64,000 nt of DNA from a phage. This document shows positions 3,398 through 21,186 of this stretch, one piece after another; the first letter of the stretch is position 1, and the number at the start of each line of letters is the position of its first letter. The translations under genes and the position numbers were made by a program. Below the pieces are notes generated by a model. It had not been told where the DNA came from and did no database searches. It saw only the letters and a list, made by a program, of their open reading frames with translations. Location: sequence record PZ452579.1, one strand, 5' to 3'.

Positions 3398-3719
3398 AAT
3401 CTTCTATGATATCAGAGTCATATCCTAATGAAATCAAGGACTTTTTAAACTCTGCAATATTCTTTTGTTTCTTATCATTTAAAAATATGACAGGATAACG
3501 AATATTAAGTGAAGTGAATCCTGCACGTTTAGCAAGAGATACGATTAAAGGACGGTCATATTCAATCTTACCATTATTAGTGAGGACTTTATAAAATGTA
3601 TAAGGAGCGTTGAGCTCCTTTAAAAGTTTTGTAACAGTATAACATCCTGGACAACGTCCAACTTCTTCAGGGATGCCATAGATTTCAATCTTGTTCTTTA
3701 AGTTCGAGTTTTGTTCCAC
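3396..3719 (-). CDS. NrdH-like glutaredoxin (CPGC active site)
   Basis: IEIYGIPEEVGRCPGCY... redoxin motif; only in-frame start near domain is GTG with AGGA upstream; N-terminal part of track ORF overlaps neighbour. Confidence 0.55.
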   Translation of the reverse strand: MEQNSNLKNKIEIYGIPEEVGRCPGCYTVTKLLKELNAPYTFYKVLTNNGKIEYDRPLIVSLAKRAGFTSLNIRYPVIFLNDKKQKNIAEFKKSLISLGYDSDIIED

Positions 3720-4002
3720 GAGAAATAATTCCTTGGTAAGCCCAATAAGGAGGATTAACAGAATCCTCACCAGAGTTTTCTTCAGGAAAATAAACCTGGA
3801 TAACAAATCCAGATGCATCAAAGGTAAAATAAACCGTAGGTAGTTCACCTAACAATTCGGCACGAGCATTAATTTCTTCGAGATCTCGTTCACGTCCAGC
3901 CCAAAAACTAGGATTTAGATTACATTCGTAAAAATAATAGTCATTACCGAACATATCAAAACCCTTCCAACTCTCTACCACATACCGCTCAAAACTAATC
4001 AT
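3685..4002 (-). CDS. hypothetical protein (105 aa)
   Basis: ORF MISFERYVVESWKGF...; overlaps start of glutaredoxin-like gene. Confidence 0.5.
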   Translation of the reverse strand: MISFERYVVESWKGFDMFGNDYYFYECNLNPSFWAGRERDLEEINARAELLGELPTVYFTFDASGFVIQVYFPEENSGEDSVNPPYWAYQGIISRGTKLELKEQD

Positions 4003-4004
4003 AA

Positions 4005-4220
4005 TTAAGCCTTTTTATCAAGAACAGAATTCAGCTTGTTAGTAATTTTATCCAAACGTTCATTGAATTCGCTGGAGGATAAACCCTTTTCCGGAGAAAT
4101 TAAACTAATCACGAAAAATACACCAGTAAAAGGAATAAGAAAAATAACTCCAACTGCCATAAACAAAAAGAACGTTACAGTTGTAAGAAAATCAGCTAAA
4201 CCTTTACGAAATTTATACAT
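4005..4220 (-). CDS. small membrane protein (71 aa)
   Basis: Long hydrophobic stretch TVTFFLFMAVGVIFLIPFTGVFFVISLI. Confidence 0.55.
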   Translation of the reverse strand: MYKFRKGLADFLTTVTFFLFMAVGVIFLIPFTGVFFVISLISPEKGLSSSEFNERLDKITNKLNSVLDKKA

Positions 4221-4801: not shown

Positions 4802-6615
4802 TGATGCTTAACCCTATGCATGATTTCTTTATTTTTACCGAGATTAAATCCGCGTTCGTTCGGATTTCCCAAATAACCGCATGTTCTTCTTATGGTGTTC
4901 ATCTTTTTAGGATCAGTTTCTCCGCAAACTGAACAAACAAATCCGTTTTCAGTAGGAGTCATTTCATGGGTACTTCCACATGTAAAACATTTATCTACCG
5001 GCATGTTAACACCAAAATAATCTAAATGTTGTGCAGCATAATCCCATACGGCCTCAAGACCTTTTAAGTTATTTTTCATATCGGGAAGTTCAACATAAGA
5101 AATGTGACCGCCGGTCGCAATGAAATGATATGGTGCTTCACGAGAAATCTTTTCAAACGGAGTAATATTTTCTTCTACTGAAACATGGAAACTGTTAGTG
5201 TACCAGCCTTTATCGGTAACATCCTTTACACTTCCATATTTTTCTGTATCGAGTTTACAGAAGCGATAACAAAGGTTTTCAGCAGGAGTCGAATATAAAC
5301 TAAAAGCAAATCCAGTTCTTTCAGTCCACTGTTTAAGATGAGCATTCATTTTAGTTAAAATTTCTCGTCCAATATCACGTCCGACAAGAATATTCAATTC
5401 GTGAATACCAATGTATCCCAAAGACACTGAACTTCTACCGTTTTTAAATAACTCAATTATGTCGTCATCAGGTTTAAGACGGACCCCGAATGCACCTTCT
5501 TGGTAAAGAATAGGAGCAACAGTAGCTTTAACTCCTTTTAGGGAACTAATTCTACACATCAAAGCTTCAAAACACAAATCCATTCGTTCATTGAATAATT
5601 CAACAAATTTCTGTTCATTGAACTGTGTTCCAATATAAGAATCTAACGCGATGCGAGGAAGATTCAGTGTTACAACACCAAGATTATTACGTCCATCAAG
5701 AATTTCATTACCAGTCGAATCTTTCCATACGCTCAAGAAACTACGGCAACCCATTGGAGAAACAGGAACAGATGAACCAGTGATAGCTTTATTGTTCTTA
5801 GCTGAAATAATATCAGGATACATTCTTTTGCTTGCGCACTCTAGAGCAAGCTGTTTAATATCATAGTTCGGATCATCTTTATAAAGATTAACACCTTCTT
5901 CAACAAACATAACAAGTTTAGGAAAAATAGGAGTTATTCCATCACGACCAAGACCTTTAACACGATTTTTCAGAATTGCTTTCTGAATCATTCGTTCAGT
6001 CCAGTCAGTTCCCGTACCAAATGTAATTGTTACAAAAGGAGTCTGTCCGTTTGAACTAAAGAGAGTATTTACTTCATATTCATAAGCTTGGAATGCATCG
6101 TATACGTCTTTTTCTGTTTTAGATTGAGCATAATTCAACGTATCAGCGATTTGCCATTTTTCTGCATCCTCAATATGTTTTGCATAGGTGCGTTTAACAT
6201 AAGGAGAAAGTACTTTATCTACATTAGCAAAAGTCGTTCCGCCGTATTGGTGAGAAGCAACCTGTGCAGTAATTTGTGCCATAATTGCAGTAGCAACACC
6301 AATCGATTTAGGCGTTTCAATCTGCGCATTACCTAGCTTAAATCCGTTTTCAAGCATTCCTTTTAAATCTACTAAACAGCAATTAGTAAATGGAAGAGCA
6401 GGGGAATAATCAATATCATGGAAATGGATAATTCCGCTTTCATGCGCTTTCATAATAAAAGACGGGACCATATTTTTGGCAATGTGTTTAGACACAATAC
6501 CAGCCATAAGGTCCCGTTGAGTTGGAAAAACACGAGAATCTTTATTAGCATTCTCGTTTAAAAGGTCTTTATTAGTTTTATGAATCAATCCTTCAATTTC
6601 TTTTTCAATTGTCAT
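4798..6615 (-). CDS. nrdD: anaerobic ribonucleoside-triphosphate reductase
   Basis: 605 aa; C-terminal glycyl radical motif RRTCGYLG and CxxC...CxxC zinc site; uninterrupted ORF. Confidence 0.95.
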   Translation of the reverse strand: MTIEKEIEGLIHKTNKDLLNENANKDSRVFPTQRDLMAGIVSKHIAKNMVPSFIMKAHESGIIHFHDIDYSPALPFTNCCLVDLKGMLENGFKLGNAQIETPKSIGVATAIMAQITAQVASHQYGGTTFANVDKVLSPYVKRTYAKHIEDAEKWQIADTLNYAQSKTEKDVYDAFQAYEYEVNTLFSSNGQTPFVTITFGTGTDWTERMIQKAILKNRVKGLGRDGITPIFPKLVMFVEEGVNLYKDDPNYDIKQLALECASKRMYPDIISAKNNKAITGSSVPVSPMGCRSFLSVWKDSTGNEILDGRNNLGVVTLNLPRIALDSYIGTQFNEQKFVELFNERMDLCFEALMCRISSLKGVKATVAPILYQEGAFGVRLKPDDDIIELFKNGRSSVSLGYIGIHELNILVGRDIGREILTKMNAHLKQWTERTGFAFSLYSTPAENLCYRFCKLDTEKYGSVKDVTDKGWYTNSFHVSVEENITPFEKISREAPYHFIATGGHISYVELPDMKNNLKGLEAVWDYAAQHLDYFGVNMPVDKCFTCGSTHEMTPTENGFVCSVCGETDPKKMNTIRRTCGYLGNPNERGFNLGKNKEIMHRVKHQ

Positions 6616-17882: not shown

Positions 17883-18095
17883 TTAATTTTGGCCAGTATT
17901 TATTTTTCGCCTTTGGACGGCCTTAACATCTGCGAGGTATTTTTCCAGCTTACGCTTACGAGTATAATCTGCTTTAGAACCAGTTTGACGGATATCCTCA
18001 TTTAAATGAGAAATAGAATGTCCTAATTCTCTTCGGATTTCATCCAATTGGGTTACAGTAAGATTACGAAGTTGTCTTTCGTTTAATTGCTGCAT
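17883..18095 (-). CDS. hypothetical protein (70 aa), rI.1 position
   Basis: ORF between rI and tk. Confidence 0.5.
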
Positions 18096-18122
18096 ATATA
18101 CCTCTTGGTTAGATATTAGTAT

Positions 18123-18704
18123 TTATAACAACCCTGTCAAATCATTCCAATGCTTCCGGCATAATGACACATATTTATCGGTATCACCAATTTCAATTTG
18201 TCCGCCATCTATAATTGGAAGTCCATCTTCCGTGACTCTAGCTACCATTGTGGCTTTTTTACCGCAATGACAGACACCTTTAAGTTCAACAAGCTTATCG
18301 GCGATAGCCATTAATGCTTGAGAACCTTCAAATAGATTACCTTTAAAATCTGTTCGTAGCCCATATGCCATTACCGGCACATTGTATACGTCAACAATGC
18401 GACTAAGTTGATACACCTTTTCAGTAGTTAAGAACTGAGCTTCGTCAACAAATACACAGTGAATATCCTTTTGTGCTGCGGCCCATTTATAGAATTCAAA
18501 GATATCCATGTCTTTTGTAATTATATTGGCATCCTGACGAATACCAATACGAGAGACTATTTCACCTTTTGAATCACGAGTATCAATAGCCGGTTTAAGA
18601 ACTAATACACCCATGCCACGTTCTTTATAGTTATGTGCGGCGGTAAGTAATGAAGCAGACTTACCAGCGTTCATAGCGGCATAGGTAAAAATTAAACTAG
18701 CCAT
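18123..18704 (-). CDS. tk: thymidine kinase
   Basis: 193 aa; P-loop AAMNAGKS; matches recalled T4 Tk along its length. Confidence 0.9.
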   Translation of the reverse strand: MASLIFTYAAMNAGKSASLLTAAHNYKERGMGVLVLKPAIDTRDSKGEIVSRIGIRQDANIITKDMDIFEFYKWAAAQKDIHCVFVDEAQFLTTEKVYQLSRIVDVYNVPVMAYGLRTDFKGNLFEGSQALMAIADKLVELKGVCHCGKKATMVARVTEDGLPIIDGGQIEIGDTDKYVSLCRKHWNDLTGLL

Positions 18705-18713
18705 AAGAGCCCC

Positions 18714-18896
18714 TTATAGTGAATTCACATAGTCAATGAGTTCTTGTTCTTTCCTGTCAAATGATTCCATCAATGCTTGATATTCTTCATCTGTTAAAGG
18801 AGCATATTCATCGTACGCATTGGTGGCTGTTTGCTCATCCAATAGGTCATGGATAAGTTCGAACAGTTTAGTTTTCTCTTCTTTAGTCAATTTCAT
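18714..18896 (-). CDS. hypothetical acidic protein (60 aa)
   Basis: ORF downstream-adjacent to tk. Confidence 0.45.
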   Translation of the reverse strand: MKLTKEEKTKLFELIHDLLDEQTATNAYDEYAPLTDEEYQALMESFDRKEQELIDYVNSL

Positions 18897-19114
18897 TTAG
18901 GTTCACCTTCTTTAACGAAATCTGGGTAAGGGTAAAATCCTGAGTAAAACCCTTCACCTTTATGATTGCTACAACCTTTGTTCGAACAGTAACACCAATA
19001 ATCAAAATCACAAGCCATTTCGTCATTGCATAAAGCAAAAACTACAGGCCATTCGCATTTTTCGCATTTAGCACCTGTAAGAATTTTTGTTTGGCTCATA
19101 ACAATGGTTCCCAA
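18893..19114 (-). CDS. Cys-rich small protein (73 aa)
   Basis: CEKCEW...CNDEMACDFDYWCYCSNKGC cluster, probable metal binding. Confidence 0.5.
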   Translation of the reverse strand: MGTIVMSQTKILTGAKCEKCEWPVVFALCNDEMACDFDYWCYCSNKGCSNHKGEGFYSGFYPYPDFVKEGEPK

Positions 19115-19593
19115 TCAACAATCACAATTTCTAGTTTAGTGGAATATGTATCTAAAATCTCTTCGATGACATCCCAATTTCCACCACCGATACCTGCACC
19201 AATTCTTGGCATATAAATTACAGGCTTTGTTATCTTATTCTTTCCGAATTCATTTAATTCTATTATACAATTCATTAAAGCAGAGTACTCAAAATTAGGT
19301 CCCGGCTCAAACTGTGTATAAAGATTAAAGCAATAAGCTTTATGGGTCTTAAAATATTTTTCATAAACCGAATAAGTCCCGAGTTTAGACTCGTCTCCGA
19401 ATTCGGTTTGAAGTTTATCGGCTTCCAGAATTTTTGGATAAGCCTTTGCTAATTGTCCTGCCACACCGGCGCCCATTGTATGAAAACAATTACACCCATG
19501 AGCAATATTATTACCTTTAGAAAACAGGGCGACAATATCGCCCTTGATATAGTTTTTAATCACTTGCTGCAAGTCCTCTAGTATAAGAGTCAA
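19096..19593 (-). CDS. macro-domain protein (ADP-ribose binding/hydrolase fold)
   Basis: GNNIAHGCNCFHTMGAGVAGQLAKAYP and PRIGAGIGGGNWDVI resemble macro-domain signature loops. Confidence 0.6.
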   Translation of the reverse strand: MTLILEDLQQVIKNYIKGDIVALFSKGNNIAHGCNCFHTMGAGVAGQLAKAYPKILEADKLQTEFGDESKLGTYSVYEKYFKTHKAYCFNLYTQFEPGPNFEYSALMNCIIELNEFGKNKITKPVIYMPRIGAGIGGGNWDVIEEILDTYSTKLEIVIVDWEPLL

Positions 19594-19903
19594 CTAGACG
19601 GTCCACCATAGAATTGCATGCTGCCTTATCTTTAGGTTCCGCCACCGAGCATTCTAATATTTGCCATTTTTTATAGTATCTTTTAATTAAGGTAGACGCC
19701 TTGAACCTACTAGACGCCCCATCTTTTTCTCCGTCTTTATATGCGTATAACAATTTTTGTGAAAAATCTACTTTACACTCTTGACTTTTACCACAATAAT
19801 CAGACGCCGTTCTGTTTGTATACTCCGTTACATCAGTATATGTAGTATTAGCAAGAGCGTTAAATGAAACCAAGCCAACTATTAAAGCCAACATTTTGGT
19901 CAT
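19556..19903 (-). CDS. secreted small protein (signal peptide, 4 Cys)
   Basis: N-terminal MTKMLALIVGLVSFNALA signal-like sequence. Confidence 0.5.
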   Translation of the reverse strand: MTKMLALIVGLVSFNALANTTYTDVTEYTNRTASDYCGKSQECKVDFSQKLLYAYKDGEKDGASSRFKASTLIKRYYKKWQILECSVAEPKDKAACNSMVDRLVDSYTRGLAASD

Positions 19904-20442
19904 TCTTTTATTTCCAGTAGTTTATTTGATTTAAGGTAATTAGCCTTTTCTAGGACTTCAGAAGCATATTTACTTCCAGCACTTGTCTTCCATCCCGCAT
20001 TATATGAGGATATAGCTTTTCTTATATCCCCATTATGTATATTTAACCAATAAGAAAATTCGATATAAGCCCATCTGGCTGAATTAGACCGCTTAGATAG
20101 CATTTTCTTAATTTGGGCATCAGTCATATTATAACCAAGCTGGTTAATTCTTTCCCTCATTGTTGGTAGATAGTTTTGGAACATTCCATACGCATGGTGA
20201 CCTTTCTTATCTTTAAGATTAATACCGGCAGATGATTCCTGCCATAGTATTGCGGCCATTATGTATCCAAGTCCTTTCTTATGCATATTTTCATGCGTTT
20301 TAAATTTTCCATCCTTAGAAAACTGTTCCCCAAACTGATAAGCATAATTCAAGTTATCGAGTTGGACATTACTAAAAGTATGCTCGGAGCCATGTGCTGA
20401 TAACGAAAGAGCAAATAGACCAGCGAGTAGTGCTTTTCTCAT
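19900..20442 (-). CDS. secreted lytic-transglycosylase-like protein
   Basis: Signal peptide MRKALLAGLFALSLSAHG; SLT-like QESS...AYGMFQ motifs. Confidence 0.55.
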   Translation of the reverse strand: MRKALLAGLFALSLSAHGSEHTFSNVQLDNLNYAYQFGEQFSKDGKFKTHENMHKKGLGYIMAAILWQESSAGINLKDKKGHHAYGMFQNYLPTMRERINQLGYNMTDAQIKKMLSKRSNSARWAYIEFSYWLNIHNGDIRKAISSYNAGWKTSAGSKYASEVLEKANYLKSNKLLEIKE

Positions 20443-20450
20443 GTTTACCT

Positions 20451-20909
20451 CTAGATTTTAATCACTGCTTTAGAAGCTTTTCCTGGTAGTCGTTTACTGT
20501 TAATAATAGCCATTCTGCATTGAAGAGTCTTCATTTTGAATGCTGGATTTTCGCGACAAACTGTAAGTCCTAACCAAAGATTTCCATCAGTTATTTCTAA
20601 ACGGCCTGGGCGATATTCGACACCTTCGACAAAATCTTCATCAACATCTGGACGTGCCGGCATTGATAAAAATTCTGCAACTTCTTTAACATGATTTTTT
20701 ACTTTACGAAATAATTCAAAAACGTAATTCTCATCTATTTCTCTCTGGATGGCACGATCTAAGAGATGTTGAGAATACTTGATATGAAAGCCTGGTAGTC
20801 CAAGAGACTTTGCAGCATCTTTTATACAGGCATTGATTTGACGAAACTCCGTTTCAAAGATTCGACGGAGTTTATTGCGACGGATAAAAACTTCCGAATT
20901 GATAGTCAT
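20451..20909 (-). CDS. regB: RegB endoribonuclease
   Basis: 152 aa; MTINSEVFIRRNKLRRIFETEFRQIN... matches recalled T4 RegB. Confidence 0.9.
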   Translation of the reverse strand: MTINSEVFIRRNKLRRIFETEFRQINACIKDAAKSLGLPGFHIKYSQHLLDRAIQREIDENYVFELFRKVKNHVKEVAEFLSMPARPDVDEDFVEGVEYRPGRLEITDGNLWLGLTVCRENPAFKMKTLQCRMAIINSKRLPGKASKAVIKI

Positions 20910-20937
20910 TTTTATTTCTCCTCTAGTTGACAGGTCT

Positions 20938-20966
20938 ATAATAACACAACTACTGGAGAAGTAAAC
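20938..20966 (-). promoter_or_regulatory. early promoter cassette (PeSL-like)
   Basis: -35 GTTTAC, 17 nt, -10 TATTAT on minus strand upstream of regB. Confidence 0.55.
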
Positions 20967-20970
20967 TACT

Positions 20971-21186
20971 TTATTGATAAAATGGAGTTAAAGCCCAAGA
21001 TTCTTTAGATACCATATCGGCGAAATGCCTCATCTCTTCGATTTGGCGACGACGCTGGTCAGCATAGTCTTCTTCGCCTTCTTCCTTACAGTCTTCAAGG
21101 TCTTCTTCAAGATACTTTAAGTATTCACTACAAATTTTGTTGACCTTTTCTTGAAAGTCCAATAACCCAGTAATAGTAGAAGCCAT
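20971..21186 (-). CDS. hypothetical acidic protein (71 aa)
   Basis: ORF. Confidence 0.45.
   Translation of the reverse strand: MASTITGLLDFQEKVNKICSEYLKYLEEDLEDCKEEGEEDYADQRRRQIEEMRHFADMVSKESWALTPFYQ

Follow-up and report, generated by a model that had tools for sequence, protein, structure and literature searches.

The locus and the macrodomain gene

The stretch of phage DNA analysed here, 64,000 nucleotides in length (sequence record PZ452579.1; referred to below as the window), is a segment of a Tequatrovirus (T4-like) genome, and its positions 18000 to 21000 share ~98% identity with Escherichia phage ST2, Shigella phage JK45 and many other phages. On its minus strand lies a gene for a small standalone macrodomain protein, which sequence comparison identifies as the orthologue of T4 tk.4, also named adfM (anti-DarT factor Macrodomain). 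An earlier, sequence-only reading of the window had reported a macro-domain open reading frame (ORF) of 165 amino acids (aa) between tk and regB. The location is correct, with tk.1, a gene for a CxxC protein, vs and vs.1 also lying in that interval, and the two Gly-rich motifs from which the domain had been recognised, GCNCFHTMGAGVAGQLAKAYP and PRIGAGIGGGNWDVI, are both present in an ORF at 19096..19593, which runs on the minus strand (the strand had been left unstated) and gives 165 aa when read from a TTG codon. The features of the gene, all on the minus strand, are the following.

19096..19563, minus: the tk.4/adfM orthologue, encoding a standalone macrodomain protein, most likely of 155 aa; GTG start, TGA stop
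19564..19593, minus: in-frame 5' extension of the maximal ORF (TTG at 19593), inside the 3' end of vs; probably untranslated
19489..19500, minus: codons of H22-G23-C24-N25 (H-x-C-N motif), N25 being the conserved macrodomain Asn
19312..19326, minus: codons of N80-L-Y82-T83-Q84, with Q84 at the position of the catalytic Lys (hhalign, hmmalign)
19174..19209, minus: codons of P119-R-I-G122-A-G124-I-G-G-G-N-W130, the second Gly-rich (diphosphate/distal-ribose) loop

While the maximal ORF of 165 aa does exist, the gene itself is most likely the shorter, 155-aa form that begins with the GTG at 19563. We prefer this form because of the lengths of the homologues, which are close to 155 aa, because of the annotation of JK45, the closest annotated phage, which places the same 155-aa start, and because of the alignment with T4 DNA, in which the T4 ATG start falls exactly on GTG 19563 and the upstream GAGGA is conserved. 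The TTG start was rejected, since the 5' extension that it would add has no counterpart in 58 relatives and the homologues begin at the position of GTG 19563.

Fold, orthology and active site

The assignment to the macrodomains was borne out by profile search. The Pfam Macro profile (PF01661) matches with 28.1 bits, above its gathering cut-off of 22 (E=2.2e-6, 116 of 118 profile positions), and PHROG 335, which carries the label 'phosphatase', matches with E=7e-67. Searching the sequences of the PDB returned Bacteroides BT1257 (6e-11), yeast Poa1p, SCO6735 of Streptomyces coelicolor, human TARG1 (OARD1) and the DarG macrodomains, and hhalign gave a probability of 98% to DarG, TARG1 and BT1257 alike. 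An AlphaFold2 model built with an alignment of 58 relatives (mean predicted local distance difference test score 96, predicted template modelling score 0.91) has a three-layer alpha/beta/alpha fold with a central mixed sheet and a cleft formed by two Gly-rich loops; submitted to Foldseek, it matched TARG1, Poa1p, DarG and BT1257, each with a probability of 1.0. By sequence and by predicted structure, then, the protein is a macrodomain, and it is predicted to bind ADP-ribose. It belongs to the ALC1/TARG1-like class, its nearest relatives of known structure being TARG1, DarG, SCO6735/BT1257 and Poa1p, rather than macrodomains of the MacroD, PARG or viral nsp3 type. Members of the family occur in 2801 of 50,697 phage records, from phages of many hosts, and in the records of several phages closely related to that of the window the gene already bears the name 'macro domain protein'.

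Scored with a hidden Markov model (HMM) of the window protein's family, the references reach 65.7 bits (TARG1), 62.0 (BT1257), 55.1 (SCO6735), 55.0 and 51.0 (two DarG macrodomains) and 36.0 (gp104 of phage PhiKZ); the scores of SCO6735 and BT1257 (55-62 bits) are thus no higher than that of TARG1 (66 bits). Given that the family is about equally distant from these references by HMM score, we treat it as a branch of its own within the class, one that shares the Gln-type active site described below.

Each of the reference proteins resembles the family in some respects and departs from it in others. SCO6735 and BT1257 (PDB 5e3b and 2fg1/2afc, respectively) form a Gln-type subclass of the ALC1-like macrodomains and have the Gln, the Asn and the His preceding it in common with the window family. 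However, the family is without their mobile-loop extension (a gap of 6 residues relative to BT1257 and of 5 relative to SCO6735), its loop having the length seen in DarG and TARG1, whereas the loop of SCO6735/BT1257 carries Lys89/Lys94; the family also has Y-T-Q where these two proteins have I-G-Q, and SCO6735 is the product of a cellular, DNA-damage-inducible gene rather than a phage counter-defence protein. The DarG2 macrodomain (PDB 5m3i, 5m31, 7omu) is ~21% identical to the window protein, but DarG has Lys80 and a C-terminal DarT-binding domain, whereas the window protein has Gln84, no such domain and no darT next to it. TARG1 has similar loop lengths and the highest family-HMM score, and it too reverses thymidine ADP-ribosylation; its Lys84 and Asp125, however, correspond to Gln84 and Gly126. 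Poa1p is of the same fold class, again with similar loop lengths, but acts on ADP-ribose-1''-phosphate.

The relation to T4 Tk.4 (NP_049723) is far closer. The two proteins are identical at 131 of 155 positions (85%, with 94% positives and no gaps), and none of the 24 substitutions in the window protein falls at an invariant position, so that all family-invariant residues are shared. The genes occupy the same slot, downstream of vs and upstream of the tk.x genes. On this sequence evidence the window gene is the orthologue of T4 tk.4. They differ in their junctions with the neighbouring genes: the window gene has a GTG start and overlaps vs by 8 nt, whereas in T4 the overlap is ATGA, and tk.3, which follows tk.4 in T4, is absent from the window. 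In the T4 RefSeq record, tk.4 is labelled 'phosphatase; contains A1pp phosphatase motif'.

Through its T4 orthologue, both the gene and its role in counter-defence have already been described. T4 lacking adfA and adfN stays resistant to DarTG2, from which a further factor had been predicted (PMC11825919). When a T4 transposon library was grown on E. coli expressing DarTG2 (HIDEN-SEQ), tk.4 was the single significant hit; a clean knockout of tk.4 was sensitised to DarTG2, and the gene was renamed adfM (bioRxiv 10.1101/2025.11.20.689424, November 2025). The authors of that preprint regard removal of ADP-ribose from DNA by Tk.4 as something that 'seems likely' by analogy of fold only (bioRxiv 10.1101/2025.11.20.689424). 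The role does not extend to DarTG1, against which T4 uses adfN (gene 30.3), a NADAR enzyme: loss of AdfN alone sensitises T4 to DarTG1, which means that Tk.4 does not cover that system (PMC11825919). Reversal of a host defence based on ADP-ribosylation, which the sequence-only reading had offered as one possibility together with a test against DarT-like toxins, is therefore supported genetically for the T4 orthologue (bioRxiv 10.1101/2025.11.20.689424).

We then compared the active site across 59 family members (phage or metagenome relatives) and the references, whose identity to their PDB entries had been verified beforehand (DarG 5m3i and 5m31, TARG1, BT1257 and SCO6735). The family has an invariant motif N80-x-Y82-T83-Q84, in which Q84 aligns with the catalytic Lys of DarG (K80) and of TARG1 (K84) by both hhalign and hmmalign. 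According to hmmalign, this position is Gln in 59/59 family members and in BT1257 and SCO6735, whereas both DarGs, TARG1 and PhiKZ gp104 carry Lys there; the Gln is also kept in 80/80 cellular relatives. All family members retain N25 and G23, and 58/59 have H22; N25 is equivalent to Asn27 of SCO6735, Asn22 of DarG and N23 of PhiKZ gp104. In the second Gly-rich loop P119, I121, G122 and G124 are invariant, and the loop aligns with PRIGCGLAGG(K/T)W of BT1257/SCO6735 and with PPLGVGNGGLDW of DarG. Residues H22, N25, Q84, G122 and G124 thus correspond to H24, N27, Q85, G126 and G128 of SCO6735, and all are invariant or nearly so.

The exchange of Lys for Gln is of mechanistic interest. Mutants K80A of DarG and K84A of TARG1 are inactive (PMC9967889). 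SCO6735, by comparison, has Gln85 at the Lys position, and its activity is abolished by Q85A and by Q85E and nearly so by N27S (PMC9411070); this enzyme frees single-stranded DNA (ssDNA) of DarT-made thymidine-ADP-ribose faster than DarG or TARG1 does (PMC9411070) and rescues E. coli from DarT toxicity (PMC9411070; review PMC9967889). The mechanism proposed for it is water-mediated and substrate-assisted, with the Gln positioning the distal ribose (PMC9411070). In the literature that could be reached, the Lys-to-Gln swap in the T4-type AdfM goes unmentioned. The T4-type enzyme would give the lysine-free mechanism proposed for SCO6735 a second, compact representative, and inhibitors or engineered variants built on the DarG model might not apply to it.

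Proposed function and alternatives

We consider it probable that the window protein is a DNA ADP-ribosyl glycohydrolase which erases DarT2-made thymidine adducts from phage ssDNA by means of a Gln-type active site. According to this proposal the protein would be made from the packed minus-strand cluster regB-vs.1-vs-tk.4. Host DarT2 would ADP-ribosylate the N3 of thymidine in phage ssDNA at TNTC-type motifs and so block replication; the macrodomain would use its two Gly-rich loops to hold the ADP-ribose and would hydrolyse the bond between thymidine and ribose, thereby freeing ADP-ribose and restoring the DNA. It would act on the lesion rather than on the toxin, because the protein has no counterpart of the C-terminal DarT-binding domain of DarG. 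Catalysis would probably follow the SCO6735 scheme and not the Lys scheme of DarG and TARG1: Gln84, held by Asn25, would orient the distal ribose as well as the transition state, while a water kept in place by the residue 23 backbone and by the diphosphate of the substrate would do the chemistry. Both the hydrolysis of thymidine-ADP-ribose and the Gln-based mechanism we infer by analogy with the characterised enzymes.

Several points weigh against this assignment. The genetic evidence comes from one preprint and concerns T4, not the window phage. The AdfM that has been tested biochemically is PhiKZ gp104, which is a remote protein of the Lys type (FPTK). The 'mobile loop' extension of 5-6 residues with Lys89, to which the high activity of SCO6735 on DNA has been credited (PMC9411070), is missing in the window family, and K34 of SCO6735 is Ala in the window protein. 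Finally, as judged from the predicted model, the protein matches the structure of Poa1p, an ADP-ribose-1''-phosphate phosphatase, equally well.

The case of PhiKZ gp104 deserves to be set out, as it too is named 'AdfM'. In vitro it removes from DNA the ADP-ribose that DarT2 has attached (Cell Rep 2026, PMC13309987), and its N23A mutation reduces activity (PMC13309987). Like the T4-type proteins it is a standalone phage macrodomain that counters DarTG2 and needs the conserved Asn; it differs from them in being imported into the phage nucleus. Its sequence, which we obtained by translating the construct given in the methods of that paper, contains an FPTK lysine motif of the DarG type and is only distantly similar to the window protein: BLASTP aligned 23 residues only, hhalign gave 21% identity, and the score to the family HMM was 36 bits. 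The register of the motif was off by one in hhalign, at low confidence, while hmmalign gave the expected pairing of FPTK with LYTQ. Given this remote relation and the different catalytic residue, we rejected a transfer of the PhiKZ AdfM biochemistry to the window protein. The existing biochemistry thus belongs to the Lys type and the genetics to the Gln type, and neither alone proves that a T4-type enzyme hydrolyses thymidine-ADP-ribose. Two groups have independently given the name AdfM to these remotely related macrodomains, PhiKZ gp104 and T4 Tk.4, and the shared name is likely to cause confusion in annotation.

Four other explanations have to be weighed against erasure of DarT2 adducts from DNA. 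The protein might process small molecules, as an ADP-ribose-1''-phosphate phosphatase or an O-acetyl-ADP-ribose deacetylase that clears by-products of NAD+ or signalling derivatives rather than repairing DNA. The 'phosphatase' labels of tk.4 in T4 RefSeq (A1pp motif) and of PHROG 335 point in this direction, as does the H-x-C-N-C motif shared with Poa1p. These labels, however, are based on motifs and not on experiment, Poa1p has Ser at the catalytic position (read by eye) where the family has an invariant Gln, and the sole phenotype on record for tk.4 is tied specifically to DarTG2, a system that modifies DNA. RNA repair in T4, moreover, is not known to use the Tpt1 pathway, which makes ADP-ribose-1''-phosphate. 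We therefore think it improbable that this is the main function, although a phosphatase or deacetylase could be a side activity of the window protein. A slightly less probable alternative is that the protein is not catalytic and binds ADP-ribose or modified DNA, or binds DarT2 directly and inhibits it, without hydrolysing the adduct. It is without the Lys that is essential in DarG and TARG1, some macrodomains of the ALC1 class are pure readers (PMC9967889), and the DarG K80 mutant still partly counteracts DarT through binding (PMC9967889). Yet in SCO6735 a Gln at this position supports catalysis and is indispensable (PMC9411070), and those residues critical in SCO6735 by mutagenesis that recur in the window protein (H, N, Q, GxG) vary little or not at all across 139 relatives, a pattern expected of an enzyme; nor is there any domain that matches the DarT-binding half of DarG, the match being limited to positions 4-145 of 329-338. 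That a small protein should shield many lesions stoichiometrically also seems implausible to us.

The sequence-only reading had further suggested that the protein could tune the phage's own ADP-ribosyltransferases, that is, the marks which Alt, ModA and ModB place on host proteins, or RNAylation by ModB. T4-like phages do encode three ADP-ribosyltransferases (PMC9503650), and a pair of writer and eraser would be logical. Nevertheless, tk.4 was detected as conditionally needed only when DarTG2 was present, and relatives of the protein are abundant in bacteria. Alt, ModA and ModB are arginine-specific, and the substrates characterised for enzymes of the TARG1/DarG/SCO6735 type are Asp/Glu esters and the N3 of thymine or uracil; no TARG1-class macrodomain is known to cleave arginine-linked ADP-ribose. 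We found no support for such self-regulation and regard it as very unlikely, the least probable of the alternatives. The last of them is an extension of DNA erasure and compatible with it: the protein could be a broader eraser that also acts on uracil in RNA or on Asp/Glu in proteins and so counters further defences based on ADP-ribosyltransferases. SCO6735 also cleaves ADP-ribose linked to Asp/Glu of proteins (PMC9411070, PMC9967889) and to uracil on RNA (PMC13036486), and the family is very widespread in phages of many hosts. Nothing speaks directly against this breadth, but the enzyme is not expected to act on NADAR-type and adenine-directed systems (DarTG1, CmdTAC); as a description of this particular protein we judge it unlikely, on a par with pure binding.

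We also considered whether the gene descends from a captured DarG antitoxin. The only PADLOC match is DarG, through its macro half (E=9e-9, positions 4-145 of 329), and the NCBIfam equivalog for DarG (NF048014) scores 31.9 bits against a cut-off of 250, over positions 4-146 of 338. To place the family more widely, one genome per bacterial and archaeal species was scanned. The scan gave 386 stretches that encode relatives at 35-45% identity, many of them on chromosomes or large contigs, and the 80 loci that were fetched encode standalone proteins with a median length of 152 aa. DarT2 was not found within +-4 kb of these 80 cellular relatives (tblastn with one P. aeruginosa DarT2 as query; best E 0.8), and when the 127 nearest flanking ORFs (ORFs of at most 450 aa only) were scanned with Pfam, the families that recurred included varied housekeeping neighbours but no DarT. 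In the window itself darT does not stand beside the macrodomain gene, whose neighbours are vs and the gene of the CxxC protein. An origin as an orphan DarG2 antitoxin is therefore not supported: the Lys and the C-terminal domain are missing, and the 80 cellular relatives showed no DarT2 within +-4 kb with the one query used. Instead, the T4-type AdfM looks like a separate ALC1/TARG1-like lineage that stands alone in cells and phages.

Among the same 127 flanking ORFs we noted NADAR in 4 cases (best E=5e-53), NUDIX in 2 and Exo_endo_phos in 7. A pair of Macro and NADAR would mirror AdfM and AdfN of T4, erasers of thymine- and guanine-linked ADP-ribose respectively, but as adjacent genes.

A wider hypothesis, which we hold to be evenly balanced, is that the T4-type AdfM represents an independent and widespread lineage with a lysine-free, Gln-based mechanism resembling that of SCO6735 but with short loops; that phages have recruited two lineages against DarT2, the Lys type in PhiKZ and the Gln type in the T-even phages; and that the Gln type might have the wider substrate range. 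If so, the Gln type might act on ADP-ribosylated uracil in RNA or on Asp/Glu-ADP-ribosylated proteins, and counter more than DarTG2. ADP-ribosylation of DNA by DarT is a common anti-phage defence, and phage erasers, which help to set host range, are relevant to phage therapy and to the prediction of host range. In the T-even phages, tk.4/adfM is the answer to DarTG2, beside AdfN (gene 30.3) against DarTG1.

Gene packing and neighbouring genes

The macrodomain gene is flanked by the following genes, given here in the order of the minus strand.

20451..20909, minus: regB
19900..20442, minus: vs.1
19556..19903, minus: vs (valyl-tRNA synthetase modifier), the gene upstream of the macrodomain gene; PHROG 1256, E=5e-35; JK45 and T4 annotations
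18893..19099, minus: 68-aa CxxC protein, downstream of the macrodomain gene; PHROG 2306, E=3.7e-35; 100% identical to JK45_00110
18714..18896, minus: tk.1
18123..18704, minus: tk

The order regB, vs.1, vs, macrodomain gene, small ORFs and tk is that of T4 and JK45. The start of the macrodomain gene overlaps the stop codon of vs by 8 nt (GTGATTAA), and its TGA stop shares bases with the ATG of the gene that follows (ATGA); such packing of starts and stops suggests co-transcription and translational coupling. A homologue of tk.3 (70 aa), which lies just downstream of the macrodomain gene in T4 and JK45, is absent from the window, and this absence accounts for a gap of ~210 bp that splits the megablast match into two pieces (window 18893-19114, against 2393-2808 of the JK45 locus and 3532-3926 of the T4 locus as fetched). 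The CxxC protein that adjoins the macrodomain gene is unrelated to T4 tk.2.

Two signal-like elements were seen in this run. Inside the 5' end of the macrodomain gene, a hairpin at 19526-19544 (minus), with an 8-bp stem AGGGCGAT-ATT-GTCGCCCT followed by GTTTTCT, was flagged as terminator-like. Its stem-loop is the same base for base in T4 and JK45, and it encodes the conserved KGDIVAL; the T-run that follows is not conserved in T4, and the hairpin may be just a coding constraint. Just upstream of regB, a promoter-like site at 20938-20965 (minus; TTTACT-16-TATTAT with an upstream TG) matches by consensus only, and it is the only such site placed to drive the overlapping regB-vs.1-vs-tk.4 run. 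Terminator-like and promoter-like sites are no more numerous in this region than expected from shuffled sequence, and we therefore make no regulatory claim.

Some of the product names in the public records of JK45 and T4 are questionable or mislabelled. JK45 labels the vs.1 homologue 'endoribonuclease ... RegB', although the real regB is the next gene, and it also names two vs.x genes 'endoribonuclease' (labels taken as annotated). In T4 RefSeq, tk.3 is called 'Tk.2 conserved hypothetical protein', and the 60-aa mobD.4 is labelled 'molybdopterin-guanine dinucleotide biosynthesis protein MobD'. In the numbering of the fetched loci, the names in question are located at 3609-4151 and 5744-6209 of JK45 and at 1353-1535 and 3714-3926 of T4. 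The vs.1 homologue has an N-terminus that resembles a signal peptide, and in one related record it carries the name of an SLT transglycosylase-domain protein. As for vs, it was the T4 gene most strongly depleted in minimal medium relative to LB (bioRxiv 10.1101/2025.11.20.689424).

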